Origin: Parcubacteria group bacterium
GTDB taxonomy: Bacteria > Patescibacteriota > Minisyncoccia > SW-4-49-11
NCBI GenBank assembly: GCA_943354045.1
Contig: CALRBF010000002.1
Location: 1-58,725 of the forward strand
DNA length: 58,725 bases
Direction of reading: 5' to 3'
The notes below the pieces were generated by a model. The model had not been told where the DNA came from and did no database searches. It saw only the letters and a list, made by a program, of their open reading frames with translations. Below are positions 13,822 to 33,668 of this stretch, in pieces (the stretch's first letter is position 1; every line of letters starts with the position of its first letter). The translations under genes and the position numbers were made by a program.

Positions 13822-13861
13822 TTTTTATGGTATATACAATAAGCCTCTATATTTTCAGACA

Positions 13862-14266
13862 ATGATCTCCTCAACTCAGGTTCAAAGCATTATTTATCTT
13901 CGAGAGAAATTCTCTCAATTAATCATTCCTCACCCCTCTATAAGATCAGAATCTTTTGATCACAATGAGTTCTTCGGAATTATTCTAAATGGATTAGATG
14001 AATTATTACAATATATAACATTAATAGTAAATTTGAGAAAGTATATTGAAAATGAAGATATTAATGAGGATGTAGATAATATCATCACAACTCTGAATGA
14101 GTTATACGATAATTATCAGCAAGAAAAGGATAGTAATTCATTTGACATTGTAAAATTCAGTCGTAATAATGTAAGGAAGATGTCTCATCTACCCGATAAG
14201 ATTGAAAAAGTTTATAAAATTTTATTAGCAAGAGCTCAATTAGATATTATCAATGTTCTGACATAG
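13862..14266 (+). CDS. Hypothetical protein (island cassette)
   Basis: 134 aa ORF. It is preceded by a duplicated 31 bp promoter-like block and followed by a T-module terminator. Confidence 0.45.
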   Translation: MISSTQVQSIIYLREKFSQLIIPHPSIRSESFDHNEFFGIILNGLDELLQYITLIVNLRKYIENEDINEDVDNIITTLNELYDNYQQEKDSNSFDIVKFSRNNVRKMSHLPDKIEKVYKILLARAQLDIINVLT

Positions 14267-14274
14267 CCTGCCCC

Positions 14275-14299
14275 AAGCCACCCCAATAGGTGGCTTTTT
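14275..14299 (+). terminator. T-module terminator (AAGCCACC-loop-GGTGGCTTTTT)
   Basis: 8 bp stem plus a T run. Related copies are at 16936-16966, 17391-17420 and 18059-18087. Confidence 0.7.
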
Positions 14300-14301
14300 A
14301 A

Positions 14302-14418
14302 ATTCCCCTCTCTCCCTACGGTTTACCTACCGCAGGAAGGGAGATAAATTGAGGGCTTTCAGTCCCTCCCATACTTTAGTTTGGGAGGGGGTGCCGTCTT
14401 TTAGACGGTGGGGTGGAT
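14302..14418 (+). repeat. Mosaic hairpin-module repeat locus R2
   Basis: TCTCCCT-ACGGTTTACCTACCGCAGGA-AGGGAGA; GTCCCTCCCATACTTTAGTTTGGGAGGG; GGTGCCGTCTTTTAGACGGTGGGGTGGAT. Confidence 0.85.
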
Positions 14419-14537
14419 GTGTTCGGATCCCAATTCAACCTCAAATATGCTATAATACAAACATATAAATAAATATAAACTTATCCACTATGGAAAATAA
14501 TAATTCACTATTCTTTAATTATATTCTATAATAAAAC
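14414..14537 (+). promoter_or_regulatory. Leader module copy A: extended -10 promoter plus 13-codon uORF MENNNSLFFNYIL
   Basis: TGc-TATAAT at 14448-14456; uORF 14490-14531. About 95% identical to 18156-18280, and its first roughly 90 bp match 15753-15840. Confidence 0.65.
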
Positions 14538-14555
14538 CATATACTCAATCAAAAT

Positions 14556-15563
14556 ATGAAAAATATAACTCAATATCAAAATCTTGCACAGCATATATCC
14601 AAAATTCTTGAACAAAGAAGAAAAGAAGCCTTAAACAGTCTTAATACAATACTTTTACAAACTTATTGGGAAATAGGAAAAGCCATTGTGGAATTCGAAC
14701 AAGAAGGGAAGGTTAAAGCAGAATATGGCAAAGAATTACTAATTTCACTTTCCAAAGAACTTAAAAAGTATGGAAAAGGTTTTAGTAGAACCAACCTTCA
14801 ATATATGAGACTCTTTTATCTGTCTTTTCCCAAAATACCAGACGCGTCTGGCAAATTGACATGGAGTCATTATGTGGAAATTTTGGGAGTCTCTAATAAT
14901 CTTGCCCGCAACTTTTATGAAAAACAATGTATACTAGAAAACTAGTCAGTAAGAGAGCTCAAAAGACAAAAACAATCAATGTTATTCGAGAGATTTGCTC
15001 TAGGTAAGGATAAAAAGGAATTATTAAAACTGTCACACAAAGGACAAATAATCCAAAAAGCAGAAGATATTATCAAAGAGCCATATATTTTAGAGTTTTT
15101 AGGTATACCGGAACCTTATAATTTTTCAGAAGCAGAACTAGAACAAAAAATTATTGATAATTTACAAATGTTTTTGTTGGAATTAGGAAAGGGATTCACT
15201 TTTGTCAAAAGACAATTCCGTCTAAGTTTTGACAGTCGACATCATTATATAGATTTGGTATTTTATCATCGTATCCTGAAATGTTTTATACTAATTGACC
15301 TCAAAATTGGAGAAGCCGATCATACAGATATTGGGCAGATGAATATGTATTTAAACTATTTCAAAACCGAAGAAAATACACAAGGGGATAATGAGCCAAT
15401 AGGCATAATTTTAAGTGCAGCAAAAAATGATATTAAAATGGAATATGCAATGGGAGGAATAAGTAATCAAATGTTTGTATCCCAATATCAACTATATTTG
15501 CCAAAACCAGAAGAATTAGAAGCTGAAATAGAAAAATTCCTACCCCATACTGAAAATAATTAG
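14556..15563 (+). pseudogene. YhcG/DUF1016-family PD-(D/E)xK nuclease with an in-frame TAG
   Basis: ORFs 14556-14945 and 14979-15563 are in the same frame. TAG 14943-14945 sits where the family has Trp (..ILEN[W]SVRELKRQ..SMLFERFAL). C-terminal ID..DLK nuclease core. Confidence 0.75.
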
Positions 15564-15580
15564 ATCTAAATTGAGCAAAA

Positions 15581-15757
15581 TTCCCCTCTCCACCTACGGT
15601 TTACCTACCGCAGGCAGGTCGATAAATTGAGGGCTGTAAGTCCCTCCCATACTTTAGTTTGGGAGGGGGTGGTAGTCTTTTAGACGGTGGGGTGGAAGTA
15701 CTTGTCTCAATTTTTCTGTCCCCCTTTGGTGGGGGTGCCTGAAAGGTGGGGGTGGAT
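15581..15757 (+). repeat. Mosaic hairpin-module repeat locus R3
   Basis: Same module order as R2, plus GTCCCCCTTTGGTGGGGG and GGTGCCTGAAAGGTGGGGGTGGAT. Confidence 0.85.
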
Positions 15758-15820
15758 GTGTTCGGATCCCAATTCAACCTCAAATATGCTATAATATAAA
15801 TAAATATAAACTTATCCACT
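15753..15820 (+). promoter_or_regulatory. Leader module copy B (promoter of the Bro-N gene)
   Basis: Same block as copies A and C with an 8 bp deletion. TGc-TATAAT at 15787-15795. The shared ATGGAAAATAATAATTCACT is the real gene start here. Confidence 0.65.
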
Positions 15821-16669
15821 ATGGAAAATAATAATTCACTTGCTATTTTTGAGACATATAAAATTCGTCGACATTTTAATCAAGATACAGAGACCTGGTA
15901 CTTTTCTATAATAGATATAATAGCAGTATTAACAGAACAGCAAAATTTCAAAAAAGCTCAAAGCTACTGGACTACATTCAAAAACAGATTAAAAAAAGAG
16001 GGAAGTGAGTTTGTCACAAAATGTGACAAACTGAAATTAGAATCAGCAGATGGAAAATTTTATAAAACCGATGTAGCAGATGTAGAGACAATCTTGCGAC
16101 TGATTCAATCAATTCCAAGTAAAAAAGCCGAGCCAATAAAACTGTGGTTAGCCAAAGTTGGATATGAGCGAATGGAAGAAATGACCGATCCAGAAAAAGC
16201 TCTGAATAGGTCTAGAGAATATTGGCAAAAACAAGGAAGAAGCCAAAAATGGATACAACAGAGAATGACAGGTCAAGAAACAAAAAATAAATTAACCGAC
16301 TACTGGGCTCAAAATGGTGTATCAAGTGGGGCAGAATTTGCAATACTCACCAATATTATACATCAAGAATGGAGTGATATCTCTATAACCCAACATAAGA
16401 AGTTAAAAAACTTAAAGACACAAAATCTAAGAGACCATATGAGTGAAGAAGAGCTAATATTTACAGCATTAGCAGAACTATCCACAAGAAAAATTGCCGA
16501 GACAGAACAAACACAAGGACTGGAAGAAAATAAAATCCCAGCAATAAAAGGAGGTAAAATTGCTAAAGATGCAAGAAAAGCATTAGAAGAAAAAACAGGA
16601 AAATCCGTAATAACTGGAGAAAATTATTTAGTAGATAATAAAACATCTTTAATTGATAAAAAGAAATAA
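15821..16669 (+). CDS. Bro-N domain protein (phage antirepressor-like)
   Basis: N-terminus ..LAIFETYKIRRHFNQDTETWYFSIIDIIAVLTE.. is typical of Bro-N. 282 aa. Confidence 0.65.
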   Translation: MENNNSLAIFETYKIRRHFNQDTETWYFSIIDIIAVLTEQQNFKKAQSYWTTFKNRLKKEGSEFVTKCDKLKLESADGKFYKTDVADVETILRLIQSIPSKKAEPIKLWLAKVGYERMEEMTDPEKALNRSREYWQKQGRSQKWIQQRMTGQETKNKLTDYWAQNGVSSGAEFAILTNIIHQEWSDISITQHKKLKNLKTQNLRDHMSEEELIFTALAELSTRKIAETEQTQGLEENKIPAIKGGKIAKDARKALEEKTGKSVITGENYLVDNKTSLIDKKK

Positions 16670-16678
16670 ACTTTAACT

Positions 16679-16968
16679 TCCCATCTCTCCCTACGGTTTA
16701 CTTACCGCAGGCATGGAGATAAATCGAGGCTTTCGTCCCTCCTATACTTTATTTTGGGAGGTGGGTGGCAGGCTTTGCCTGACGGGGTGAAAGTGTTTTG
16801 CAACTTGTATTTTTGTCCTCCTTCGGAGGAGCTTTAAGTCCCTCCTATATTTATTTAGGAGGGGGTGCCCGCAGGGCGGAGGTGGACATTGTTTTCTTAC
16901 AATTCCAAATTGACTACTCTTCCCCACACCCCCCTAAGCCACCCTCCCAGAGAGTGGCTTTTTTGATT
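16679..16968 (+). repeat. Mosaic hairpin-module repeat locus R4 (ends in a T module)
   Basis: Contains the P, L, S, GTCCTCCTTCGGAGGAG, second L, GGTGCCCGCAGGGCGGAGGTGGAC and AAGCCACCCTCCCAGAGAGTGGCTTTTTT modules. Confidence 0.85.
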
Positions 16969-16971
16969 AGA

Positions 16972-17003
16972 AAAAAAGCTCGAGTTTTATACCCGAGCTC
17001 ATT
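16972..17003 (-). terminator. Rho-independent terminator of the 17020-17304 gene
   Basis: On the minus strand: AGCTCG-loop-CGAGCT followed by TTTTTTT. Confidence 0.6.
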
Positions 17004-17019
17004 TACTCAAAATGATACT

Positions 17020-17304
17020 TTATTTTATATAATGATACTCTATGATATCCCCGGTTCTATCTCTTCGTTTTGGAAATCTCACATGATTAGTTTGTCCATC
17101 TATTGTGATGATATCATTGTCTCTACAATCTTTTAGAAGATTATTTTTTGTATAATCTAAATATTCTTTTGTCTCTGGGTGCTCTGCTAAAAGATGTATC
17201 AACTGAGCTTTACTTATTGTTTTGCTACTCTTTCTAGTAGACATAATAGTTGCCCCTATCAACCACACAACAGACTTGTGTGTGATAGCCGTTTTTGGAT
17301 CCAT
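17020..17304 (-). CDS. Hypothetical small protein (possible start at ATG 17244)
   Basis: 94 aa ORF. The internal ATG has an AGGGG SD-like box. A CACACAA/TTGTGTG hairpin lies in the N-terminal extension. Confidence 0.4.
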   Translation of the reverse strand: MDPKTAITHKSVVWLIGATIMSTRKSSKTISKAQLIHLLAEHPETKEYLDYTKNNLLKDCRDNDIITIDGQTNHVRFPKRRDRTGDIIEYHYIK

Positions 17305-17385
17305 GGAATGATTTGGAGATAACCTTGGTAATTATATATAATTTTTCCAATAATATCAAATACATATAACATAAAAATATAATTT

Positions 17386-17625
17386 TCCCCCTAAGACACC
17401 CTCCCAGAGAGTGGCTTTTTAAATCCCCCTCTTTTGTAATACTCCTCACTTTCGTAGGGGCGACCTTTCAGTCGCCTGGATTTGTTTGACTCTCTCCTTT
17501 GAACTTCTGTCCTCCCTTGGTGGAGCTTTCAGTCCCTCCCATACTTTAGTTTGGGAGGGGGTGACACCTACGGTGACGGCGGAGGATTAGGAGTAAATCC
17601 CATTTGCGACGGGGGAGGTGGATTT
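17386..17625 (+). repeat. Mosaic hairpin-module repeat locus R5
   Basis: T module, TTCGTAGGGGCGACCTTTCAGTCGCC, GTCCTCCCTTGGTGGAG, L module, GGTGACACCTACGGTGACGG, AAATCCCATTTGCGACGGGGGAGGTGGAT. Confidence 0.85.
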
Positions 17626-18297: not shown

Positions 18298-19163
18298 ATG
18301 AAAAATGAAATTATTTTATATAGACCAGATGATTTAGATGAGCATATAGAAGTAATGCTTAAACACGAAACTGTTTGGTTAAACAGACAGCAAATGGCTT
18401 CGCTTTTTGGTAGAGATGTGAAAACTCTTGGTAAACACATCAATAATGTTTTTTCGGAAGGAGAACTAGATAATATAGCAACTGTCGCAAAATTTGCGAC
18501 AGTTCAAAATGAAGGAGGCAGAAAGGTTGAGCGCCAAGTGGAGTATTACAATCTAGATGTTATAATATCAGTAGGGTACCGAGTAAAATCAAAACAAGGT
18601 ACACAATTTCGCATCTGGGCAACCAATATTTTACGAGACTATTTACTCAAAGGCTATGCACTGAATAATAGAATGAACAGAATAGAAGATAATATTCAAT
18701 CTTTGAGTGAAAAAGTAAATCAAATAGATTTACAAATACATACCAATACCATCCCAACCCAACCCAAGGAGTATTCTTTGAAGGACAAGTATTCGATGCC
18801 TATGAATTATTCTCAAAAATAATTCGCAAAGCCAAAAGTCATATAATCCTGATAGACAACTACATAGACGAGACCACCCTCATACATTTATCCAAAAAGA
18901 ACCCAAAAGTAAAAGCCCTCATATTAACCCATCCAATAAGCCAAGAATTAGAGCTAGATATACAGAAAGTCAATCAGCAATATGGAAACTTCAAAATAAA
19001 GAAATTTAATAAAAGCCATGATAGATTCCTCATCATAGATCAAAAAGAAATCTATCATCTCGGAGCCTCACTCAAAGATTTAGGCAAAAAACTCTTCGCC
19101 TTCAGTCTATTAGACACAAGTTCAGTACAAGATTTATTGAATAGAGTAAAAGATTTAGAGTGA
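18298..19163 (+). pseudogene. RhuM-family protein, frameshifted at a (CCCAA)3 tract
   Basis: N-terminal part ..VEYYNLDVIISVGYRVKSKQGTQFRIWATNILRDYLLKGY. The C-terminal part GVFFEGQVFDAYELFSKIIRKAKSHIILIDNYIDE...KDLE* is open in another frame up to TGA 19161-19163. Confidence 0.75.
18753..18767. repeat. Pentanucleotide tandem repeat (CCCAA)x3 at the RhuM frameshift point
   Basis: Three perfect units. Two units (or five) would put both halves of the gene in one frame (..IPTQGVFFEG..). Confidence 0.85.
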
Positions 19164-19171
19164 GTGTATTA

Positions 19172-19455
19172 TTGTCCTCTAATTCTTTCGTAGAGTCGGC
19201 GACCCCGCCGACATAGTTTTTTGTAGGGGCGACCTGTCAGTCGCCTGTATTTGGTGTTAAAAATCCCCCTCTCCACCTACGGTCGATAAATTGAGGAGTG
19301 GACAGCTTCGCTGGACGGGGTGGAAATGTTTTGCAAGGTGAGTTTCTGTCCTCCCTTGGGGGAGGTGTCACCGTAGGTGACGGAGGAGGACATAATTCAT
19401 AATTTGCAATTTATCCCCCTACCCAATTTATCGACCGTAGGTGGAAACCTCCACA
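19172..19455 (+). repeat. Mosaic repeat locus R7, including a unit bounded by 21 bp perfect inverted repeats
   Basis: TCGTAGAGTCGGCGACCCCGCCGAC; TGTAGGGGCGACCTGTCAGTCGCC. CCACCTACGGTCGATAAATTG (19273-19293) is the perfect reverse complement of 19424-19444. Confidence 0.85.
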
Positions 19456-19498
19456 AAAACATGCTACAATACAAACAATCATTAAACTCACACAATCT

Positions 19499-20101
19499 AT
19501 GAAAGGAGTAGTCTATATAATGACAACAGTAGTCGATGGACTAATAAAAATAGGACAAACAGGCAGTCAAAATTATCAAGAAAGGATGAGAAATCTAGAA
19601 TCAAATGGATACTACAATGTCTCAGGATTAAAGAGATTCTTTGCAATAGAACTAGAAGACTATACATATAAAGAAAATCTCCTCAAAGAAATTTTCACCA
19701 AACACAGAGTAGGAGACAGTGAGTTATTTGCCCTAGACTATGATTTGGTAAAACAATTACTCCTATCCTTTGAAGGAAAAGTAATATACCCAAAAGACAT
19801 AGATAAAGAAAAAGAATTCGATGAAATTTCAAAATCCAGAGAGCAAAGTGCAAAATTTAGTTTTTATAGAAAAGGCATACAAAATGGAGAAGAAATAGTA
19901 TTCATAGCAGATAAAGATATCACAGCAAAAGTCGTAGGCGAGAGAGATGTAGAATATGGAGGACAAGTTTTCAAACTATCCCCATTAACCCTAAAAATAT
20001 ATCAACAAAAAGGCAATAGCAATAAAAGTGGAGCCTATCACGGAGCAGCCTATTGGCAATATAAAGGTAAGAAGTTAAAAGATTTAATAGATATACAATA
20101 A
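19499..20101 (+). CDS. GIY-YIG / T5orf172 (MUG113)-domain protein
   Basis: GVVYIMT...GLIKIGQT...R...L N-terminal pattern. 200 aa. Directly upstream of hsdM. Confidence 0.6.
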   Translation: MKGVVYIMTTVVDGLIKIGQTGSQNYQERMRNLESNGYYNVSGLKRFFAIELEDYTYKENLLKEIFTKHRVGDSELFALDYDLVKQLLLSFEGKVIYPKDIDKEKEFDEISKSREQSAKFSFYRKGIQNGEEIVFIADKDITAKVVGERDVEYGGQVFKLSPLTLKIYQQKGNSNKSGAYHGAAYWQYKGKKLKDLIDIQ

Positions 20102-20158
20102 TCACTCCTCAAAAGGTGGGGGATATGGTATAATAGGGGTAAATAATATATATTTTTT

Positions 20159-21670: not shown

Positions 21671-21680
21671 TTACACATCT

Positions 21681-22502
21681 ATGATACATAACATATTTGA
21701 AAATATTAGAAAAATCAATGAATATAATCAAGAATTTTGGTCTGCTCGGGATCTGTATAAATTACTTGGATATACAGAGTATGGAAAATTTTTACCAGCA
21801 ATAGAAAGGGCAAAAAAAGCTTGTAAAAATAGCAAACAAGAAGTAAATTTGCATTTCGCTCAGGTGAGCGAACCCCAAAAATCCCGCAACCAATACGGAG
21901 AAACTCAAGGTCAGATTTTGGAAGATTATCATCTTTCTCGTTATGCCTGTTATCTTATAGCTCAAAATGGAGATCCAAGAAAAGAAGAGATCGCATTTGC
22001 TCAAACATACTTTGCAATTCAGACAAGGAAGCAAGAGCTAAATGACGAATTTCTGGAAGATCATAAAAGAGTACTCCTCAGAGATGAGATGAAAGAACAT
22101 AATAAAAATCTTGCTAAAGCAGCAAAAGAAGCGGGAGTTGTGAATTATGCAAATTTTCAAGATTATGGATATATGGGACTTTATGGTGGAATGAGGCAAA
22201 GAGATATTTATACAAAAAAGAAATTAAAAGAAAAAGAAACAATACTTGATCATATGAATAGTGAAGAGCTTGCTGCAAATCTCTTCCGGGCAACGCAAGC
22301 TGAAGCTAAGCTTAAAAGAGAAAATATTATTGGACAAGAAAAAGCAAATCGAGCACATCTTGATGTTGGTAAAAAAGTAAGAGAAACAATTAGAGATCTT
22401 GGTGGAACAATGCCAGAAAACCTTCCAACACCTGATAATATTAGAGAATCAAAAAAGAGAGTAAAACAACTATCTAAGAAATTATTATCCAACAAAGAAT
22501 AA
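21681..22502 (+). CDS. DinD-like (DNA-damage-inducible protein D family) protein
   Basis: MIHNIFENIRKINEYNQEFWSARDLYKLLGY...YHLSRYACYLIAQNGDP. ATG 21681 is preferred over the TTG 21654 of the ORF track. Confidence 0.65.
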   Translation: MIHNIFENIRKINEYNQEFWSARDLYKLLGYTEYGKFLPAIERAKKACKNSKQEVNLHFAQVSEPQKSRNQYGETQGQILEDYHLSRYACYLIAQNGDPRKEEIAFAQTYFAIQTRKQELNDEFLEDHKRVLLRDEMKEHNKNLAKAAKEAGVVNYANFQDYGYMGLYGGMRQRDIYTKKKLKEKETILDHMNSEELAANLFRATQAEAKLKRENIIGQEKANRAHLDVGKKVRETIRDLGGTMPENLPTPDNIRESKKRVKQLSKKLLSNKE

Positions 22503-22503
22503 T

Positions 22504-25531: not shown

Positions 25532-28500
25532 ATGACTACTCTCAATGAATCCCATATAGAACAGACCTTGATAGATATCCTTGTAGCTCAAGGCTATCAG
25601 TATTTTTATGGTCCAGATATTGCTCCGTATTCAGCTAATCCCCAACGAGAAAATTTTGATAGTGTGATCCTCGAAAATCATCTCAAGGAATCCCTCAAAA
25701 GATTAAATCCAGATATCCCTGAATCAGCAAGGCATGAGGCCTATCAGCATATTATGAATCTTGGCTCTTCTGATTTTATGGCAAATAATGAAAAATTTCA
25801 TAATTATCTAACTGATGGGATTACGGTTGAATACTTTAAAGATGAGGCTATAAAGGGTATCAATGTAAAGCTTCTTGATTTAGAGAATATTGCCAACAAT
25901 AGCTTTTGGGTAGTGAATCAATTTGTGGTAAAAGAACAAAATAATGAGAAGAGATTGGATGTGGTGATTTTCGTGAATGGGCTTCCATTAGTTGTGGTGG
26001 AATTAAAGAATGCAACTGATGAGAAGGCTACTTTGGAGAGGGCTTTTATGCAAATTCAGAATTATCAAAAAGCTATCCCAAGTATTTTTTATTATAATGC
26101 TTTATGTATTATCTCGGATGGGATTGAGGCGAAGGTTTCGAGTGTATCTGCTCCATTTAGTAGATATCTTGCTTGGAAATCTCCTGAGAAAGAGGAGAAT
26201 AACATTCCTGAAATGCAGATTATGGCTGAGAAAATGCTTGATAAAGAGGTTTTGCTTCGATTGATTCGATATAATACGGTTTTTGAACAAGAGGAGCAAA
26301 AGGATGAGAAGACGGGGTTATTATCTGTGGTAAAAATTAAGAAAATTGCGGCTTATCATCAATATTATGCGGTGGAAAAGGCGGTAAAGGAAACGGTGAG
26401 GGCTACTGATGAATCTGAGGGTAATAGGAAAATTGGGGTTATTTGGCATACTCAGGGTTCAGGGAAATCTCTTTCTATGGTGTTTTATACGGGGCAAATT
26501 GTGGTAGAGCCTGTGATGAAGAATCCAACTGTGGTGATTTTGACGGATAGGAATGATCTTGATGATCAACTTTTTACTACTTTTGGGAATTGTAAACAAT
26601 TATTGAGACAAACTCCTGTGCAGGCGGAGAATAGGGAACATTTGAAGGAATTACTGAAGGTTTCGGGTGGAGGTATTGTGTTTACGACTATTCAAAAATT
26701 TGCTCCTACTTCAGGAAATGTATATGAGATGTTATCTGAGCGGTCGAATATTGTGGTGGTAGCTGATGAGGCTCATCGGAGTCAATATGGATTCAAGGGT
26801 AGAGAGGTTGAGATAGAGGATGGTTCGGAGATTCGATATGGGAATGCGAAGTATCTGAGAGATGCTTTACCGAAGGCTTCTTTTATTGGGTTTACAGGTA
26901 CTCCTATTGAGAAGGAGGATAGGTCAACGCGTAATGTGTTTGGTGATGAAATTGATATTTATGATATTAAACAAGCGGTGGATGATGGGGCTACGGTTCC
27001 GATTAGTTATGAATCGCGTTTGGTAAAAATTCGATTGAATCAAGAGGTGGCAAGTCAGATTGATTATGCGGTGGATGAAATAGTGGGAGCAACACAGGAG
27101 CAAAAAGAAAAGGCGAAAAAGAAAAATGCTCAAATTGATGCTATTGTAGGGCATCCTGATAGGCTAAAGGATATTGCAAAAGATATTGTGGAGCATTTTG
27201 AGGCGAGGCAGCAAACCTTTGAGGGGAAGGCTATGGTAGTTTGTATGACGAGGCAAATTGCGGTGAATCTATATCGAGAAATTATTACTCTTCGTCCAGA
27301 ATGGCATAGTGATGAGTTGATGCAGGGGATGATTAAAATTGTAATGACTTCAAGTAGTGATGATCCTGAAAGTTTCCAATCTCATCATACGACGAAAGAG
27401 GATAGAAAAAAACTTGCCCTGAGGCTGAAGGATATTAATGATTCTCTTCAGATGGTGATTGTGCAATCTATGTGGTTAACGGGATTTGATGTGCCATGTC
27501 TCAATACGATGTATATTGATAAAAAGATGCAGGGTGCCAATTTGATGCAGGCTATTGCTCGGGTGAATCGGGTATATCGGGATAAACCAGGAGGACTTAT
27601 TGTTGACTATATTGGTATTGGGCAGGATCTCAGAAATGCGATGGGTGTCTATACGCAAAGTGGTGGCCAGGGAAAAGCTATTCTTGATATCTCGGAGGTG
27701 ATTGCGGGTATGAAGACTAAATTTGAGATTGTGGAGCAGATGTTCCATGGCTTTGATTATAAGCAATATTTTCAGGTTGAAAATAAGGAAAAATTACAGA
27801 TATTATTGGGAGCTTCAAACTTTATATTACGGGATGATAAGTTGAAGAATAGATTTCTTGCAGAAATTACGGCTTTGTCTCAATTATTTGCGATGGCGGT
27901 GCCAAGTTTTGAATCAGAACAAATACGAGATGAGGTGGCATTCTTTCAAGCGATAAAAGCTCGTATTAATAAATTCACTCCTAGTGGTGGTGTATCTGAT
28001 AGGCAGGTAGAAACGGCAGTAAGGCAAATTGTTGATGAGGCTTTAGCGAGTGATGGTGTGGTGGATGTGTTCGAAGCAGCAGGTATACAAACTCCTACTC
28101 TTGATATTTTGTCAGAGGAATTTTTGCTTGAGGTGAAGAATATGGAGCAAAAAAATATAGCTTTTGAATTACTTCGCAAACTTATTAATGATGAGGTGAA
28201 GGTGAGAAAAACAAAGAGTATAGCTCAAGGGAAAAAGTTTTCTGAGATGTTGGAACGGGTGATTAAAAAGTATCATAATAATCAAATTGATACGGCCCAG
28301 GTTATTCAAGAACTTTCTCAAATCGCTCGGGAGATGAAATTAGAGGATAGTAAAGCTGAGGAATTGGGATTATCTCCTGAGGAATATGCATTTTATTCGG
28401 TGCTCGCACAAAATGATTCCACAAGATTTTTGCAGGATGATAAGATGAAAGAGTTGATTCATGTTATCGTGGAGATTATTCGTAAAAATGCGACGGTTGA

Positions 28501-28651
28501 TTGGGAGAAGAGAGAGGATGTCAGAGCTAAACTTCGTCTTACGGTCAAAAAAATTCTAATCAGGTACGGGTATCCACCTGATCTCGCAAGAATAGAAGCT
28601 GATAAAGTTCTTGAGCAAAGTGAATTATTGGCTAAGGAGTTAACTCAATAA
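25532..28651 (+). CDS. hsdR: Type I restriction endonuclease subunit R
   Basis: N-terminal nuclease region (..DVVIFVNGLPLVVVELK), helicase motif I HTQGSGKS, DEAH box VVADEAHRSQ, QAIARVNR. 1039 aa. Confidence 0.93.
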   Translation: MTTLNESHIEQTLIDILVAQGYQYFYGPDIAPYSANPQRENFDSVILENHLKESLKRLNPDIPESARHEAYQHIMNLGSSDFMANNEKFHNYLTDGITVEYFKDEAIKGINVKLLDLENIANNSFWVVNQFVVKEQNNEKRLDVVIFVNGLPLVVVELKNATDEKATLERAFMQIQNYQKAIPSIFYYNALCIISDGIEAKVSSVSAPFSRYLAWKSPEKEENNIPEMQIMAEKMLDKEVLLRLIRYNTVFEQEEQKDEKTGLLSVVKIKKIAAYHQYYAVEKAVKETVRATDESEGNRKIGVIWHTQGSGKSLSMVFYTGQIVVEPVMKNPTVVILTDRNDLDDQLFTTFGNCKQLLRQTPVQAENREHLKELLKVSGGGIVFTTIQKFAPTSGNVYEMLSERSNIVVVADEAHRSQYGFKGREVEIEDGSEIRYGNAKYLRDALPKASFIGFTGTPIEKEDRSTRNVFGDEIDIYDIKQAVDDGATVPISYESRLVKIRLNQEVASQIDYAVDEIVGATQEQKEKAKKKNAQIDAIVGHPDRLKDIAKDIVEHFEARQQTFEGKAMVVCMTRQIAVNLYREIITLRPEWHSDELMQGMIKIVMTSSSDDPESFQSHHTTKEDRKKLALRLKDINDSLQMVIVQSMWLTGFDVPCLNTMYIDKKMQGANLMQAIARVNRVYRDKPGGLIVDYIGIGQDLRNAMGVYTQSGGQGKAILDISEVIAGMKTKFEIVEQMFHGFDYKQYFQVENKEKLQILLGASNFILRDDKLKNRFLAEITALSQLFAMAVPSFESEQIRDEVAFFQAIKARINKFTPSGGVSDRQVETAVRQIVDEALASDGVVDVFEAAGIQTPTLDILSEEFLLEVKNMEQKNIAFELLRKLINDEVKVRKTKSIAQGKKFSEMLERVIKKYHNNQIDTAQVIQELSQIAREMKLEDSKAEELGLSPEEYAFYSVLAQNDSTRFLQDDKMKELIHVIVEIIRKNATVDWEKREDVRAKLRLTVKKILIRYGYPPDLARIEADKVLEQSELLAKELTQ

Positions 28652-28667: not shown

Positions 28668-28907
28668 ATGAAACTCTTCCGCTACCGTAAACCATCGCTC
28701 AAAACATTACTTGGAGTGACAAAAGTAAAGCGTAGGATAAAGAAGGCTACAGGGATTTCTGCAGTGCAATCTCTCAGTCCTTCTCGAGTTAAGCAAAAAA
28801 TCAAATACAATATAGGGTATAATAAACCTATTTTCAAACATACCAGAGAACTGAGCAAGGGCAAAGTCCCGAGTCTGTTGGGCTGGTTTTCAAAATTGTT
28901 TAAGTAA
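28668..28907 (+). CDS. Small very basic protein (79 aa), last gene of the R-M transcription unit
   Basis: ORF starts 16 nt after hsdR. Its last 120 nt (28788-28907) are duplicated at 30084-30203. Confidence 0.45.
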   Translation: MKLFRYRKPSLKTLLGVTKVKRRIKKATGISAVQSLSPSRVKQKIKYNIGYNKPIFKHTRELSKGKVPSLLGWFSKLFK

Positions 28908-28918: not shown

Positions 28919-29032
28919 ATGTCAACAAAACAAGATGCAATTAAATTTACAAAAAAAAATCTCGTTAAACAGCTAATCACGAAACTATTTTCGAGCAAAT
29001 GCTCCTCGCAACAGAGAATTATACCGTTCTAA
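28919..29032 (+). CDS. 37-aa peptide gene (X1), the only intact member of a thrice-repeated unit
   Basis: MSTKQDAIKFTKKNLVKQLITKLFSSKCSSQQRIIPF*. Copies X2 and X3 differ mostly at third codon positions but lack start codons. Confidence 0.35.
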   Translation: MSTKQDAIKFTKKNLVKQLITKLFSSKCSSQQRIIPF

Positions 29033-29125
29033 AAGGGGGGTATGAGCATAGTTGCTTTTAAAGATTTTGAAGCAGTTTTTGCGGTAAATTAAGCAAATGG
29101 TATATGGTCAATTTGTTTTATAAGA

Positions 29126-29154
29126 TTGACAAAATTAATAAAATGTGCTATAAG
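29126..29154 (+). promoter_or_regulatory. Promoter of cassette a
   Basis: TTGACA-AAATTAATAAAATGTGC-TATAAG. Member of the TTGACAAAAT..AAATGTGCTAT promoter-module family. Confidence 0.7.
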
Positions 29155-29179
29155 AAGATTGTCTATCTTTTGCACCTTT

Positions 29180-29545
29180 ATGTTTTCTCAAAAGATCAAG
29201 GAAGAGCTTCGCAAGCTCAAACATGATCGGGTTTTGATGCTCGGAGCAATTCAACGCTTGGAGCTTCTTCTTGAAGGCCCTGATCCTGTTTTGGACTCAG
29301 AGGCCTATAAGAGGTATGGTGACGAGCTTGATCATCTGGAGGATGATATGGAGAAATCCCTCCGAGTGGATTCGAAGCGCGCCTTTGAGGGAGCGTTTCG
29401 AAAGATTCAGTCTGGTATGGATGATGAGTATCTCTATCGGATTCTCGCCGAGCAAGCACGAACCATTCTCCGACATCAACGTCGGAAATCTTTGAGGAAG
29501 AATCAAAGATTTCCTCTTCGTACATTGTTGGGGATAATCTTTTAA
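29180..29545 (+). CDS. Hypothetical helical, charged protein (cassette a, GC-rich)
   Basis: ATG 29180 is downstream of the promoter (the ORF-track TTG 29126 is the -35 box). About 50% GC. Confidence 0.5.
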   Translation: MFSQKIKEELRKLKHDRVLMLGAIQRLELLLEGPDPVLDSEAYKRYGDELDHLEDDMEKSLRVDSKRAFEGAFRKIQSGMDDEYLYRILAEQARTILRHQRRKSLRKNQRFPLRTLLGIIF

Positions 29546-29662: not shown

Positions 29663-30010
29663 CTATTGCCTCCAATTGATCACCGTTCTGGTGGAGCTGG
29701 TGGGGCCAAAACGAATGCCCCATACATCTAGGGAGATCTTTGTTCCTTTGGGAAGGGCAGAGATAGCTCCATAGGTGTCAGAACTCCTGAAATGTCCTGT
29801 CAGCAAGTCATCCTTGATATCGAATGTCTCCTGTTCACAGAACAGTCTGTAGGCGTTTCCTGTCCCAGTGCGGACATTTTCCGCCTTGATCACCGTGCAG
29901 GGAACTCCTGCGAAATAGGTGGTCGGTCGCAATGTCCCTACCACGAGGGCGATAGCTCCCACTACAATGAAAGTTAGAATTAGGTTAGAGTTGTTGTCTG
30001 AGTTGGACAT
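29663..30010 (-). CDS. Hypothetical N-terminally membrane-anchored protein (cassette b, GC-rich), ends ..VINWRQ*
   Basis: 115 aa with a TM helix at residues 10-30. Has its own promoter and terminator. Confidence 0.5.
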   Translation of the reverse strand: MSNSDNNSNLILTFIVVGAIALVVGTLRPTTYFAGVPCTVIKAENVRTGTGNAYRLFCEQETFDIKDDLLTGHFRSSDTYGAISALPKGTKISLDVWGIRFGPTSSTRTVINWRQ

Positions 30011-30036
30011 TTGGAAGAAAGATCAATTTCGATGAA

Positions 30037-30065
30037 AATGATAGCACATTTCCCTAATTTTGTCA
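30037..30065 (-). promoter_or_regulatory. Promoter of cassette b
   Basis: Minus strand: TTGACA-AAATTAGGGAAATGTGC-TATCAT. Confidence 0.7.
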
Positions 30066-30083
30066 ATGGTAGATAACTAATGT

Positions 30084-30203
30084 GGTTAAGCAAAAAATCA
30101 AATACAATATAGGCTATAATAAACCTATTTTCAAACATACCAGAGAACTGAGCAAGGGCAAAATCCCAAGTTTATTCGGCTGGTTTTCAAAATTGTTTAA
30201 ATA
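30084..30203 (+). repeat. D2: duplicate of the 3' 120 nt of the small basic protein gene
   Basis: About 92% identical to 28788-28907. Encodes ..KQKIKYNIGYNKPIFKHTRELSKGKIPSLFGWFSKLFK*. Confidence 0.8.
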
Positions 30204-30231
30204 AAAAAAATCCCCCGGCGAGGTGTCGGGG
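30202..30231 (-). terminator. Rho-independent terminator of cassette c
   Basis: CCCCCG-9 nt-CGGGGG with an A8 run on the plus strand. Confidence 0.6.
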
Positions 30232-30326: not shown

Positions 30327-30593
30327 TTAGAATGGCCAGTCTTGATTCTTACTCTCCTCCCAAGTATAGAGACGGCTACCAGTTTTGGTGTAAACCAGAC
30401 CATTACCTGCAAAGAATAACACATCACCAGTTCGTCGGTTAACACCATACGAGCATGTATCGAGCAGTCGCTGGAGAGCTTGATCGATTGTTTCATTATT
30501 CCTGCAATTTGCGGCCGCAATTTCCCTTAGTGAGTAAAGGGTAGAATCATCAATATATCGTTGAATTCCACTGACGGTGATTAAAGTGGACAT
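30327..30593 (-). CDS. Hypothetical 88-aa protein (cassette c, GC-rich)
   Basis: ATG 30593 lies downstream of the promoter. The ORF-track start 30629 overlaps the predicted start of transcription. Confidence 0.5.
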   Translation of the reverse strand: MSTLITVSGIQRYIDDSTLYSLREIAAANCRNNETIDQALQRLLDTCSYGVNRRTGDVLFFAGNGLVYTKTGSRLYTWEESKNQDWPF

Positions 30594-30617
30594 GATGTAG
30601 GGGCAATTTGCTAAGAC

Positions 30618-30646
30618 AACATAGCACATTTTGCTAATTTTGTCAA
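30618..30646 (-). promoter_or_regulatory. Promoter of cassette c
   Basis: Minus strand: TTGACA-AAATTAGCAAAATGTGC-TATGTT. Confidence 0.7.
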
Positions 30647-30686
30647 TAGTATATGACTAAAAATTTCTTATATCAAAAAATAAAGT

Positions 30687-30787
30687 CCAATTAAATTCAC
30701 TCAAAGCCTGGTTAAGCGGCTGGTCACGAAACTATTTTCGAGCAAATGCTCCTCGCTACAGAGAATTATACCGTTCTAAAAGGGGGG
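30687..30787 (+). repeat. X2: second copy of the X unit (no start codon)
   Basis: Core CGAAACTATTTTCGAGCAAATGCTCCTCGCTACAGAGAATTATACCGTTCTAAAAG is near-identical to 28979-29034. Confidence 0.8.
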
Positions 30788-30829
30788 CATTTATTGATTA
30801 ATAGATATTGGGTTTGATATAATGTATTT

Positions 30830-31039
30830 ATGAAAGAATATATTATATTTTTAGATGAATCTGGAGATCATAACTTAGTAAAGTATGATATTCAATATCC
30901 TATTTTTACTTTGGTAGGGTGTATTTTTGAAAAAGTATATTATGAGGAGCAAGTTATTGCTAAAGTAAATAAGCTTAAAATTAATCATTTTAATAATAAA
31001 AATACCATATTACATTCTTATGTCCTTTTTCTATATTAA
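30830..31039 (+). pseudogene. DUF3800-family gene fragment (N-terminal 69 aa only)
   Basis: MKEYIIFLDESGDHN.. is the DUF3800 N-terminal motif. The ORF stops far short of the family's usual length. Confidence 0.5.
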
Positions 31040-31375: not shown

Positions 31376-31461
31376 CAAATACAAAGCCTCGTCAAGGGGC
31401 TGACCGCGAAACTATTTTCGAGCGAATGCTCCTCGCAACAGAGAATTATACCGTTCTAAAA
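31376..31461 (+). repeat. X3: third copy of the X unit (remnant)
   Basis: ..QSLVKGLTAKLFSSECSSQQRIIPF* with no start codon. Core at 31407-31462. Confidence 0.8.
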
Positions 31462-31545
31462 GAGTTTTAAAATACTACTATCTTCACGAATTATATTATG
31501 ATATCTATGATTATGGTGTTATGATATATACATATATAAAATATT

Positions 31546-32466
31546 ATGAGTGAAGTTGCGATTGATACCAAAAAATTAGATAGAAGTAAGACTATTCTGA
31601 AATGGATGGGAATTATGATATCTGGAATTGGTTGGTTGGGTATATGGGGTGTGACTCCTTTCTATCTTTGGATATATGCCAATGGGCTTGGTCAATATTT
31701 TCTTGAGGTGATTATATCGGATATGATATTGACTCTTATCTTATCGAGTATTTTTGTTGTATTAGGGAATCGTATACGAGTTGGGGTTGATCGTAGTATA
31801 AGGATGTATCTACAGGTATTGATTATATTGATGGGTATTATATCCTTAGGGTTTATTATTTTTGAAAATACAATTAGTATTACGAGTTGGGTATATATTG
31901 GTGTGCTCGTATTCCTTATATGTTCTTGGGTTGTTTTGAGTCAGATATTGAGGAATAAGGACTTTGTAGCAACATTACATAAGCCTGTATATAAGTATTT
32001 TGATACGAAGGGGTGGATTATCTTTTTCTTGATTGCTTTTGGTATATTATCGGTAACTTTTTATATTGATTGGATTGCATTAGATGATGAGATGTATTGG
32101 GACTCATTGTCAGAAGAGGAGTATAGTGAAGAGACAGATAATAAGCTTGCTGCTATGGTGTCAATATTAAATGATAGACCTTTTCCGAGTAAATTGAATG
32201 ATAATATTACTCTGTTAGGAATTAAGGAGCAGCAATCTGGTTCTATTCAATATACATATGAAATACAAAATATAGATTCTAGTCAATTATCTACAGAATT
32301 CCTTAAGGATTTGATGGTTAAAGAGTACTGTAATAATGAATTTGTTAATTATATTTTAGACCAAGAGATAGATATTGCGCATTCATTTACAACGGAGAAA
32401 GGTGAGAATTATTTTGTCACTCTTGATTTTAGTAGTTGTGAATCTTCCTTGTTTAATATTCTATAA
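31546..32466 (+). CDS. Hypothetical polytopic membrane protein with a soluble C-terminal domain
   Basis: Five to six TM helices followed by an acidic region. 306 aa. Confidence 0.5.
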   Translation: MSEVAIDTKKLDRSKTILKWMGIMISGIGWLGIWGVTPFYLWIYANGLGQYFLEVIISDMILTLILSSIFVVLGNRIRVGVDRSIRMYLQVLIILMGIISLGFIIFENTISITSWVYIGVLVFLICSWVVLSQILRNKDFVATLHKPVYKYFDTKGWIIFFLIAFGILSVTFYIDWIALDDEMYWDSLSEEEYSEETDNKLAAMVSILNDRPFPSKLNDNITLLGIKEQQSGSIQYTYEIQNIDSSQLSTEFLKDLMVKEYCNNEFVNYILDQEIDIAHSFTTEKGENYFVTLDFSSCESSLFNIL

Positions 32467-32518
32467 GAATACGTGAGAGTGATCTAGCTGTTTTGAAGGA
32501 TTTTTTGAGGTAGGTAAA

Positions 32519-32718
32519 ATTCCACCCCTTAATCAAAGATACCACCCCCTCCCAAACTAAAGTATGGGAGGGACTGAAAGCCCTCGATTTATCGACCTGC
32601 CTGCGGTAGGTAAACCGTAGGTGGAGAGGGGAATTAGCTCAATCCACCTCTGGCACTCCGTGCCACCCCCTCCTAAATAAATATAGGAGGGACTTAAAGC
32701 TCCTCTAAAGGAGGACAA
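32519..32718 (-). repeat. Mosaic hairpin-module repeat locus R8 (inverted orientation)
   Basis: Reverse complements of the S, L and P modules, then ATCCACCTCTGGCACTCCGTGCCACC, L, and CTCCTCTAAAGGAGGAC. Confidence 0.85.
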
Positions 32719-32810
32719 AACACAAAACTCTCCGCTATGAATTTATATTATAAATTAGGCTATTATTATGGTATAATGTTATAAATATATATCTCCTGTT
32801 TAGAAATACT

Positions 32811-33278
32811 ATGCCAAAAAAAATACTAAATCAACAATCTTCATCGGAGCTTATCCAAGCTAGTACTGCCCAGTATCTAACCTTTGTATCTGCTAGTGGA
32901 GATGATTCAGAAAGTATAGAGGTTAGATATGAGGATGAAAATATCTGGATGACTCAAAAAATGATGGCTGAAATGTATGGGGTGTCTGTATCTGCAATCA
33001 ATCAGCATCTTAAAAAATTATTTGATGACAAAGAGATAAATAATTCAGTTATTAAGAAATACTTAATAACTGCCAGCGATAGTAAAAGTTATAATGCTAC
33101 TCATTATAATCTACAAGCTATTATTGCTATTGGGTTTAAGATAGAAAATGATAGAGCGGTACAATTTCGTAAATGGGCAAGACAAATAGTAAAAGATTAT
33201 ACTATTCAGGGTTGGGCTATGGATAGTGAAAGATTAAAAAAAGCTAATCAATTTGATAAAGAGTTTTTTGAAAGATAA
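32811..33278 (+). pseudogene. RhuM-like gene truncated after the N-terminal domain
   Basis: ..HYNLQAIIAIGFKIENDRAVQFRKWARQIVKDYTIQGWAMDSERLKK... then stops at 155 aa. Mosaic repeats lie on both sides. Confidence 0.55.
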
Positions 33279-33288
33279 TGAATAATTA

Positions 33289-33530
33289 GGGGAATTTTTG
33301 CTCAGTCCTCCTCCGGCACTTCGTGCCACCCCCTCCTAAATAAATATAGGAGGGACTTAAAGCTCCTCTAAAGGAGGACAGAAAACTAGATACAGGCGAC
33401 TAAGAGGTCGCCCCTACGAAAAATAATGTCGGCGGGGTCGCCGACTCTACGAAATAATGGAGGGACGAAAGTCCTACGAACACAGAATCCAATCCACCCC
33501 GTCCAAAGGAGGACAGAATACCCCTACCTC
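33289..33530 (-). repeat. Mosaic hairpin-module repeat locus R9 (inverted orientation)
   Basis: Shares CCGGCACTTCGTGCCACC, L and CTCCTCTAAAGGAGGAC with R8. Also carries reverse complements of the TTCGTAG-type modules of R5 and R7. Confidence 0.85.
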
Positions 33531-33550
33531 AATTTTGGTGTTATTATAAC

Positions 33551-33579
33551 TTGACAAATAATATAATCTATGCTATACT
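33551..33579 (+). promoter_or_regulatory. Promoter of the DEAD-box helicase gene
   Basis: TTGACA, 17 bp spacer, TGc-TATACT. Confidence 0.65.
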
Positions 33580-33668
33580 ACTTTTCAATGTGGTCATAGA
33601 TGGCGTTTATACAAGTATGTATATGATTGGTATCTATATTCCATATCATATTCATAATCATATTTTGT

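Follow-up and report, generated by a model that had tools for sequence, protein, structure and literature searches.

The roughly 20 kb between dus and a DEAD-box helicase gene in the window, the whole 58,725-nucleotide stretch analysed here, is a strain-variable island of mostly anti-phage genes. The host belongs to an ultra-small freshwater Paceibacteria (CPR/Patescibacteria) lineage. Pfam, NCBIfam, and PADLOC confirmed the gene content of the accessory/defence island that a preliminary description had placed from the end of dus to the start of the helicase gene, and every earlier gene annotation was upheld. The proposal of a recombination hotspot holding a cassette-built defence island was borne out by empty and variably filled sites in relatives. 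We think it likely that the locus is a chromosomal defence hotspot flanked by core genes, where turnover occurs by homologous recombination and shared modules act as homology patches.

The left core flank is dus (tRNA dihydrouridine synthase; 12856..13821, + strand; Pfam Dus, 3e-58), whose last ~10 codons vary between relatives. The left border lies within these final codons, at ~13800-13815, and homology with relatives stops at 13785-13814. Comparison with relatives sets the right border at 33536|33537. The right core flank (33537..34931, + strand) comprises a promoter (TTGACA at 33551; TATACT ending 33579), a conserved leader, and a CshA/RhlE-like DEAD-box helicase gene (ATG at 33669), so that the island stops short of the helicase promoter and 5' leader (33537-33668), which belong to the core. 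The hotspot site is the ~15-nt gap from the dus stop codon to the -35 box of the helicase promoter. Structurally, the discontinuity of the island is unambiguous. A compositional discontinuity at the borders, the other mark raised in the preliminary description, is absent by GC content (0.350 in the island vs 0.349 in the core); this match gives no sign of foreign origin and fits exchange within the lineage, without independently supporting it. No integrase or transposase was found among the scanned island ORFs of the window and about twenty variants, and no att-like direct repeat of at least 9 nt is common to both borders.

Synteny comparison, which had been suggested as a check, places dus beside the helicase gene in five relatives (L015, L132, L004, L129, and L133; spacing about 130-350 nt), and the ancestral state is dus adjoining the helicase gene. 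About twenty other relatives are occupied at the same insertion point by 1-20 kb of differing cargo, including several type I R-M variants, type IIG/ISP-like and type III R-M, Shedu, SNF2+DUF4391, an SLFN-like helicase with a KAP NTPase, YcaO, and others. Gene order is not conserved across divergent relatives; such conservation is what the preliminary description would have counted against an island. The basal empty sites L015 and L132 contain no repeat modules, and thus the hotspot exists without repeats; the empty sites L004, L129, and L133 contain hairpin-only insertions without cargo. Reading from dus to the helicase gene, occupied sites loosely share one layout: small cassettes, T5orf172, a variable defence slot, the 79-aa gene, and RhuM(-Fic). 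Variation has three levels, affecting single cassettes, the defence slot, or parts of an operon (hsdS, passenger gene). Cassette order is permuted among genomes with 95-99% identical core proteins, and flanking core identity is patchy (93-97% for ksgA and the dus 5' end of L006, 75-90% for neighbouring bins).

At the left end, cassette 1 (13808..14266, +) joins promoter module P1 (13808-13840; second copy at 17653-17685) to orf13862 (134 aa, no known family), and recurs in other contexts in L001, L169, L177, and L178. Mosaic block R2 (14267..14564, +) follows, with terminator hairpin T, nested hairpin B (B model, 86 bits), hairpin C, a small hairpin, and, at its end, the GGGGTGGAT promoter/leader module E (E model, 5.5e-20). 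Next come an inactivated YhcG-family PD-(D/E)xK nuclease gene (DUF1016_N + YhcG_C; 14556..15563, +; PADLOC candidate PDC-S02) and block R3 (15568..15820, +; B, C, hairpins, and E promoter), which has folding z scores of -3.0 on the + strand and -3.8 on the - strand. The Bro-N domain protein gene (15821..16669, +; PDC-S13), which encodes an identical protein in L177 and L178, precedes block R4 (16665..16975, +; B, C, further hairpins, and terminator T). The orf17020 cassette (16965..17432, -) has its own terminator, a 94-aa ORF (17020-17304), its own promoter, and a T module (17388-17432); this unit of ~420-500 nt is found in L001, L002, L007, L008, L010, L130, and L131 with differing neighbours. 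A segment missing from L177 (17433..18306, +) contains block R5, the second P1 copy, orf17724 (105 aa), and block R6 with an E leader. It is followed by a RhuM-family gene (RhuM1; 18298..19175, +; PDC-S05/S23), block R7 (19182..19455, +), and the T5orf172 (GIY-YIG-like) cassette (19456..20106, +; PDC-S57). The last anchors the left side of the variable R-M slot and is conserved, being 94-98% identical in L001, L002, L146, L169, and L177, where the downstream systems differ.

The slot itself holds a type I R-M operon in which three passenger genes are embedded (20159..28651, +): hsdM (20159-21670), a Bro-N passenger (21654-22502), hsdS (22504-23730), a Hypoth_Ymh passenger (23746-24501), a PIN_12 passenger (24498-25511), and hsdR (25532-28651), all on the + strand. 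Compared to L002, hsdM (93%) and hsdR (85-88%) are kept, and the passenger and hsdS (41%) are different; the promoter 5' of hsdM is kept in L001 and L146 before other R-M genes. The conserved right anchor is a gene for a 79-aa basic protein (28668..28907, +), which is 94-96% identical in L001, L002, and L146; a 79-aa gene also occupies the equivalent position in L171-L173 and L176.

To the right, leader module D4 (88 nt, copy 1), promoter module P2, and orf29126, whose true start is probably the ATG near 29210, form a block (28956..29545, +) that is contiguous in L170. Then follow orf29663 (115 aa, secreted-protein-like; phrog_301 at 8e-8) with a P2 copy (29663..30081, -), a duplicated 3' fragment of the 79-aa gene (30085..30214, +; 92% identical to 28788-28917), orf30327 (100 aa) with a P2 copy (30327..30660, -), D4 copy 2 with a DUF3800 gene fragment (30703..31039, +), and D4 copy 3 with a 306-aa membrane protein gene (31383..32466, +), a unit also present in L001 and L174. 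Block R8 (32518..32723, -) is inverted and promoterless, as is R9 (33297..33536, -; mosaic block proper 33297-33500), which reaches the right border. Between them lies a RhuM remnant (RhuM2, 155 aa; 32811..33278, +); in occupied islands, the right end usually holds an intact RhuM or RhuM-Fic gene.

The island is cassette-built, as had been described: one promoter module (E) precedes six different cargo genes, and terminator and leader modules recur. Cassettes have their own promoter and terminator, and share modules of promoter (E, P1, P2), leader (D4), terminator (T), and GC-rich nested hairpin (B, C, others) type. Besides R2, R3, R4, R7, R8, and R9, mosaic blocks lie at 17388-17700 and 18055-18306, and a second module set extends over 28.9-31.5 kb (three copies of the 88-nt unit and four of a 40-nt promoter module). 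Re-use of leader and terminator modules was confirmed. The 8.5-kb R-M operon is free of mosaic blocks except for a 25-nt hairpin (22531-22555). Repeats cover 10.2% of bases in the island and 1.4% elsewhere in the window, and terminator-like sites number 22, compared to 10.5 +/- 3.4 in shuffles. Given how much of the intergenic DNA consists of repeats, intergenic breakpoints would often be expected to land in them for that reason alone, a point against an active role of the modules. Blocks of the family also occur beyond the island (12604-12790, 39773-39863, 48340-48490, and 57436-57570), and the family is not island-specific. Module B forms a nested hairpin that is conserved (88.5% of cells paired vs 47-57% in slid controls), with compensatory changes at 6 pairs. 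Nearly all of its 32 copies are within these islands, and none was found when ~10 kb of sequence upstream of dus was covered in about ten relatives. Across 185,579 species-representative genomes, the exact B core was found at just 4 places. No Rfam family matched at threshold.

Blocks fold end to end, with 5' TCCACC pairing with 3' GGTGGA. Since every block has both motifs at these ends, the motif alone cannot define orientation, as the preliminary description had used it, although R8 and R9 do lie, as entire blocks, in inverted orientation (96-101 nt, 91-97% complementary). A block takes the direction of the promoter attached to it: every block on the left ends in a rightward promoter and hence points rightward, and R8 and R9 are promoterless inverted blocks round the conserved right-hand RhuM gene, with orientation unchanged in relatives and in the cargo-free site L004. 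The idea that the repeat family flanks the island in inverted orientation had to be abandoned, since R1 falls outside the island, upstream of dus, and no mosaic block is present at the left border.

Comparison with L177 locates breakpoints. L177 is 98.2% identical to the window over 12657-17432, diverges exactly at the T-module end (17432), resumes at the T5orf172 cassette (98.0% over 19455-20105), and then carries a different R-M system. Breakpoints between near-identical strains lie at module edges, either where a terminator module ends or immediately downstream of a promoter that the strains share. Direct repeat pairs surround cassettes or groups of cassettes at 14410-14564/18152-18306 (155 nt, 95%), 16931-16975/17388-17432, 28788-28917/30085-30214, and 32634-32723/33297-33386. 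Gene decay in the island proceeds by nonsense mutations, frameshifts, and short-repeat deletions. Five inactivated genes were confirmed, in agreement with the earlier count of at least five: YhcG has an in-frame TAG (14943-14945), with an identical split in L177 and L178; RhuM1 is frameshifted near 18760, and L002 has this gene intact, as an ORF of 286 aa; RhuM2 lost ~555 nt between 16-nt direct repeats (vs L175); the DUF3800 fragment lacks ~470 internal nt (vs L001); and the fifth is the 130-nt duplicate fragment of the 79-aa gene. The three documented deletions involved microhomology of 0-16 nt, not modules.

In the reading that we favour, incoming DNA, probably acquired by transformation, would be exchanged by general homologous recombination, with anchors in the conserved flanking genes (dus/ksgA to the left, helicase/RNase Y to the right) and, within the island, in T5orf172 and the 79-aa gene. 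The common modules of 40-155 nt would probably be portable homology patches that permit swap, deletion, or duplication of single cassettes, and the hairpin arrays in the transcript probably serve, between cassettes that are transcribed independently, as terminators or insulators and to protect 3' ends. A causal role of the repeats in gain and loss is plausible but unproven, and for whole-slot replacement, recombination in the conserved flanks is an equally good explanation.

It is possible, though we doubt it, that the hotspot is real and the repeats are passengers, that is, REP- or MITE-like selfish or regulatory hairpins piling up in dispensable DNA. Common promoters would then reflect shared cassette descent, and turnover would come from flank recombination and ordinary deletions. 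The cargo-free hairpin insertions at three empty sites, the blocks at other intergenic sites, the deletions without module use, and the repeat-free basal sites are all consistent with this explanation, but the match of breakpoints to module edges in the 98%-identical L177, the bracketing of cassettes by direct module repeats, and the strong concentration of B in the islands count against it. The end-to-end folding and covariation of the hairpins, the identical ends of the orf17020 cassette in six genomes, and a tyrosine recombinase gene 5 kb away could also point to a dedicated site-specific cassette system, integron- or Neisseria dRS3/NIME-like, whose recombinase (this enzyme, at 38583-39626, or one encoded elsewhere) recognises hairpins, e.g. 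GGTGGAT...ATCCACC. Such a system is improbable: the enzyme is Xer-like, far under the integron-integrase cut-off (87 vs 265 bits), and its gene has an unchanged position in L015, where the dus site is empty; cassettes have their own promoters; the hairpins match no Rfam family; and the junction 5' of T5orf172 shifts within the E module between genomes, which implies that there is no fixed crossover point.

Erosion of an integrative mobile element (prophage remnant, satellite, or integrative mobilisable element) once site-specifically integrated beside dus would account for the pseudogenes and for Bro-N, RhuM, and T5orf172, which are common in phages and mobile elements. We regard this origin as highly improbable, given that the window island has no integrase, excisionase, replication, or structural genes, that no integrase was seen in about twenty variants and no att-like repeat is shared by the borders, that island and core GC are equal, and that variants differ by cassette rather than as alternative whole elements. 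Assembly could in principle have joined co-existing strains through 100-155-nt repeats, making the cassette order partly an artefact, and short-read unitigs (run ERR3997377) do break exactly in repeats, at 14367 and 31433/32569. This is scarcely credible in view of the independent assembly L178, which is 100% identical over 9821-19634 (9.8 kb; left third of the window), and of other assemblies that support the T5orf172-hsdM, hsdR-79aa, 79aa-orf29126, DUF3800-membrane, and membrane-R8-RhuM-R9-helicase junctions, with the right-end junctions reproduced in L170 and L175; some junctions at 29.5-30.8 kb are found in the window only.

Several known systems share parts of this organisation. As in integron arrays, co-oriented single-gene cassettes stand in a row with structured imperfect palindromes between them, and order and content vary among close strains; unlike in integrons, there is no integron integrase, attI, or attC, each cassette has its own promoter, and crossover points are not fixed. 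The mosaics of short GC-rich imperfect intergenic palindromes resemble REP/BIMEs (PMC2817692, PMC3184786), as do hairpins maintained through compensatory changes and likely to be terminators or mRNA stabilisers. By contrast, orientation does not alternate inside a block, copy number is apparently low and concentrated in one island, and the host has no known RAYT (REP-associated tyrosine transposase) gene.

The closest analogues are the minimal mobile elements (MMEs) of Neisseria with their NIME arrays and the defence hotspots of E. coli and Pseudomonas. Neisseria MMEs likewise place alternative cassettes, notably R-M, between the same conserved genes across strains without mobility genes, and NIME arrays set short GC-rich inverted-repeat units beside variable genes. 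These arrays are proposed to promote recombination with incoming DNA and, according to the paper that describes them (PMC1797815), had not been seen outside Neisseria. The sequences are unrelated, with neither a dRS3 consensus nor a DNA uptake sequence here; the modules are in fixed order and fused to a promoter; and transformation is here an inference. E. coli has 41 core-gene-flanked defence hotspots (PMC10121019), and core defence hotspots are also described in Pseudomonas aeruginosa (PMC10250203). The Paceibacteria locus differs from these in its small-genome CPR/Patescibacteria host, in having no mobile-element genes detected in any variant, and in its single-gene cassettes with common promoter, terminator, and hairpin modules. 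It shares with them a fixed position between conserved core genes, sites empty in some strains and filled with differing defence systems in others, R-M beside candidate defence genes, and type I R-M operons with embedded passengers. We conclude that the locus illustrates well a type of hotspot that is already known, and does not represent a new kind of system.

Synteny with relatives is the decisive test of island status, and it upheld the proposal of the preliminary description that everything between dus (12856-13821) and the DEAD-box helicase gene (start codon at 33669) is accessory: dus adjoins the helicase gene in other genomes, and the contents of the site are variable. The window is chromosomal, has a GC content of ~35%, and carries core genes for rpoB/rpoC, secA, RNase Y, HU, truB, ksgA, and an ABC-F protein together with five tRNAs. 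The public genomes nearest to it were assembled from freshwater metagenomes and bear the labels Paceibacteria, Paceibacterota or Minisyncoccia (CPR/Patescibacteria); their Dus proteins show 85-97% identity to that of the window. Both flanks are syntenic across relatives: ABC-F, ksgA, and dus precede the site in this order, and helicase, RNase Y, HU, truB, and Xer follow it. This order is retained in all five genomes with an unoccupied site (contigs L015, L132, L004, L129, and L133), where dus and the helicase gene are separated by 130-350 nt. In L015 and L132, ~15 nt past the dus stop codon are followed by GGTGTTATTAnAACTTGACAAAT, the helicase promoter, which is found in the window from 33537 onward. 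L004, L129, and L133 contain merely 100-250 nt of GC-rich hairpins inserted at the same point, with no evident target-site duplication at these insertions. Within the helicase promoter and leader (33537-33668), 115 nt are highly conserved and present in all relatives, as is a low-complexity, Ser/Asn/Arg-rich N-terminal extension of the helicase (33669-33860).

Occupied sites differ in length (L001, ~11 kb; L002, 14.5 kb; the window, 19.7 kb), and their cargo is enriched for defence genes. These comprise several type I restriction-modification (R-M) variants (among them, in L010 and L131, a further type I system in which Shedu separates hsdS from hsdR), type IIG/ISP-like systems, type III R-M with Abi_C (L171), SNF2 with DUF4391 (L003), an SLFN-like helicase with RadC and a KAP NTPase (L173), and PADLOC candidate families. 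L001 carries a 1433-aa T5orf172-ResIII-Eco57I fusion, L146 carries MmeI/Eco57I methylases and a T5orf172-helicase, and L008 carries Ricin-lectin and NYN proteins. The site is not confined to defence cargo, since L130 holds a YcaO-nitroreductase fusion of the azoline-type peptide modification kind (9809-11971 of that contig). Cassettes are also rearranged relative to one another: orf13862, orf17020, and the left RhuM gene (RhuM1) come in this order in the window, L001 has orf17020 followed by orf13862, and L002 has RhuM1 followed by orf17020. Common to the occupied islands is a loose scaffold of T5orf172, a variable defence slot, a 79-aa gene, and a RhuM(-Fic) gene adjoining the helicase gene. 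The right-hand RhuM copy of the window (RhuM2, 32811-33278) is a remnant of this last scaffold gene.

The gene list first read from the window was reproduced by Pfam, NCBIfam, and PADLOC. On the left are orf13862, a YhcG nuclease divided between two ORFs (DUF1016_N and YhcG_C), a Bro-N protein, orf17020 (- strand), orf17724, RhuM, and T5orf172; on the right are a basic protein of 79 aa, three small ORFs, a fragment of DUF3800, a membrane protein, and the second RhuM. Four of these proteins fall into PADLOC phage-defence-candidate families (YhcG, S02; Bro-N, S13; RhuM, S05/S23; T5orf172, S57), and an exact-protein look-up of T5orf172 returned no match. Between these two parts lies a complete operon for a type I R-M system, made up of hsdM, a Bro-N passenger, hsdS, Hypoth_Ymh, PIN_12, and hsdR. 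HsdM (N6_Mtase and HsdM_N domains), HsdS (two Methylase_S domains), and HsdR (HSDR_N, SWI2_SNF2, and T1RH-like_C domains; TIGR00348 at 601 bits) are all present at full length. The annotated 5' end of hsdS (22504-22580) crosses a 25-nt repeat hairpin, AAAAAATTCCCCTCTTGAGGGGT, at 22531-22555, with further copies at 57508-57532 and near 48.4 kb; this hairpin marks where the passenger gene meets hsdS, whose true start is probably the downstream ATG (MKSDGV...). Among the small ORFs of the island, phrog_301 on orf29663 was the sole match in searches of PHROGs and Pfam, and the other small ORFs matched nothing in either collection.

The five gene inactivations are real. YhcG contains an in-frame TAG; RhuM1 (18298-19175) carries a frameshift, where the L002 copy is an intact 286-aa ORF; RhuM2 lacks 555 nt, deleted between two 16-nt direct repeats; 470 nt are deleted from DUF3800; and a duplicated fragment of the 79-aa gene is also in the island. 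L178, an independent assembly, matches the window at 100% over 9821-19634, and most right-hand junctions are supported by other assemblies. Short-read unitigs break within the repeats, and the order at 29.5-30.8 kb is that of the window assembly alone.

The repeats described for the island are real and concentrated there, occupying 10.2% of its bases compared to 1.4% outside, and nine of the 13 mosaic blocks in the window lie in or beside it. Terminator-like hairpins occur at twice their frequency in shuffled sequence. The left-hand blocks follow a fixed module order: T, a terminator hairpin (GCCACC...GGTGGC) followed by a T run; the hairpins B and C; small tetraloop-type hairpins; and GGGGTGGAT with E, a promoter/leader sequence (CCAATTCAACC...TGCTATAAT). 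Across genomes, E stands upstream of six different genes (YhcG, two Bro-N types, RhuM, T5orf172, and a NYN gene). Module B is a nested hairpin with 32 copies detected by a covariance model in 408 kb of window and relatives, nearly all of them downstream of dus. Its structure is conserved, with 88.5% of cells paired compared to 47-57% in slid controls and compensatory changes at six pairs; RNAalifold recovered the inner stem only, and these figures refer to a three-helix structure that was defined manually before testing. Exact matches to the B core number only four in a collection of species-representative genomes. One B copy (38.8 bits, exact core-pattern match) lies at 7381-7433 of L128, a contig labelled Bacteroidia bacterium KatS3mg027, which could reflect mis-binning or transfer. 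Right-hand modules differ and include three copies of an 88-nt leader unit (D4) and four copies of the P2 promoter. A riboswitch-like function of D4 was rejected, because D4 had no Rfam match and folded weakly (z = -2.0). Rfam searches used the gathering threshold and, for the repeat regions, a limit of E ≤ 0.1; they returned only tRNAs and a single sub-threshold match to whalefall-1 RNA in the hairpins of block R1 (12735-12778, - strand; 24.8 bits against a gathering score of 37), which is probably a chance likeness between GC-rich hairpins.

Two border properties expected in the preliminary description were not borne out. The repeat family does not flank the island in inverted orientation: R1 lies outside the island, upstream of dus, and no block is present at the left border. 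The rightward direction of the left-hand blocks follows from the rightward promoters at their ends, and R8 and R9 are promoterless inverted blocks on either side of the conserved right-end RhuM gene. Nor was there a compositional discontinuity, and GC content was rejected as an island marker (0.350 inside and 0.349 outside). Tetranucleotide correlation with the core was modestly lower in the island (0.84-0.94 compared to 0.95-0.98), and rpoBC was equally low. Atypical base composition is a common but non-defining feature of genomic and defence islands.

No integrase, transposase or recombinase domain was detected, either among the window's island ORFs or among those ORFs of relatives that were scanned or listed, and the border windows (140 nt left, 151 nt right) share no repeat of at least 9 nt that could represent att sites. 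The nearest tyrosine recombinase (38583-39626), 5 kb away, best matches XerC/XerD (about 170 bits), scores 87 bits against an integron integrase model with a cut-off of 265, and has an Xer-like counterpart in the same position in the empty-site genome L015. Thus, no IntI-type integrase lies beside the array. The cassettes carry their own E, P1 or P2 promoters, and so are not the promoterless, attC-ended cassettes of integrons. Moreover, the junction upstream of T5orf172 varies between genomes in its position within E, which argues against a fixed crossover site.

Instead, the locus is best explained as a defence hotspot flanked by core genes, with turnover by homologous recombination. L177, whose Bro-N protein is the same as that of the window, matches the window at 98.2% identity over 12657-17432, diverges at the exact end of a T module, regains 98.0% identity over the T5orf172 cassette (19455-20105), and then carries a different R-M system. 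The H modules of blocks R5 and R7 were rejected as the joint of a deletion in L177, since the alignment has the replacement beginning at the T module. The promoter before hsdM is kept in L001 and L146 upstream of unrelated R-M genes, which places the break immediately downstream of the -10 box. The flanking core genes show patchy identity; recombination tracts ending in these genes would produce such a pattern, which hints at recombination. The leader before YhcG and RhuM1 (14490-14510) holds the first ~20 nt of the Bro-N gene (15821-15840), ATGGAAAATAATAATTCACT, followed by 60 nt more and then a new start codon; this looks like a scar left when the gene behind a retained promoter was replaced.

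Conserved flanks and internal anchors would enable slot replacement, and direct module repeats are found on both sides of cassettes or cassette groups. The shared modules probably provide portable homology for single-cassette changes and probably act in the transcript as terminators or insulators. A causal role of the modules in turnover is inferred; against it, the basal empty sites lack modules, and repeats occupy much of the intergenic DNA anyway. A more far-reaching proposal is that the hairpin arrays and portable promoters form a dedicated Patescibacteria cassette-exchange device, in which bracketed cassettes loop out as circles and re-enter at any homologous module, or come from imported DNA. 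Such a device would fill the role that attC sites have in integrons or dRS3/NIME arrays in Neisseria, and would provide a streamlined genome with a compact defence locus that can be reshuffled without an element-encoded integrase, but we consider it improbable.

Other features of the flanks were observed. The ksgA/dus intergenic region (11878-12855) is a second small variable site, containing in the window orf12231 (115 aa, hydrophobic), a terminator, and R1; the gap is just 62 nt in L015, and orf12231 homologues occur in L008, L038, and L146. The truB/Xer junction (37775-38582) is a third, with ~800 nt in the window compared to 28 nt in L015; the window has an ORF (38083-38586 or 38237-38527, - strand) behind a P2 promoter copy, and relatives have other small ORFs at this point. 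Several near-identical relatives also carry a DUF559/MTES_1575 endonuclease-like gene between HU and truB (L169, 10570-10959; L171, 10453-10839; L175, 5446-5835), which is absent there from the window. Finally, two adjoining cytochrome-b5-like genes (8424-8948 and 8970-9284) have 45-nt starts (8423-8467 and 8969-9013) that are 87% identical, suggesting a tandem duplication.

The locus behaves like the defence hotspots between core genes of E. coli (PMC10121019) and Pseudomonas aeruginosa (PMC10250203). Closer in behaviour are the minimal mobile elements of Neisseria, where one R-M system or another occupies the space between fixed flanking genes and where arrays of NIME repeats have been proposed to favour recombination with incoming DNA (PMC1797815). 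Both have alternative cassettes between the same conserved genes and lack mobility genes. However, dRS3 repeats (ATTCCCN8GGGAAT) flanking RS elements are absent here and the module sequences differ; the hairpin ATTCCCCTCTTGAGGGG (22531-22555 and 57508-57532) resembles dRS3 in form only. The Neisseria elements are exchanged by natural transformation and homologous recombination; the sole hint of recombination here is the patchy identity of the flanks. The hairpin modules are also similar in form to REP/BIME elements (PMC2817692), being short GC-rich extragenic palindromes with a conserved hairpin, but BIMEs alternate in orientation and the modules do not. REP/BIME elements are further marked by a high copy number across the genome and an associated RAYT transposase; the 58 kb of the window contain 13 blocks. 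Genomic islands with type I R-M systems have already been reported in Patescibacteria (PMC12455944). This locus shows that one lineage gathers its variable defence repertoire at one sharply delimited position in the chromosome.

The genomes of CPR/Patescibacteria are tiny and contain few CRISPR systems, and R-M-type systems are thought to provide most of the defence of these bacteria. Here, the repertoire is exchanged at several scales among strains with nearly identical core genes, without visible mobile-element machinery. The dus and helicase genes provide a marker pair for mining new defence genes in freshwater CPR metagenomes, and the locus is a natural test bed for whether cassette exchange is driven by the short promoter, terminator, and hairpin modules that cassettes share.
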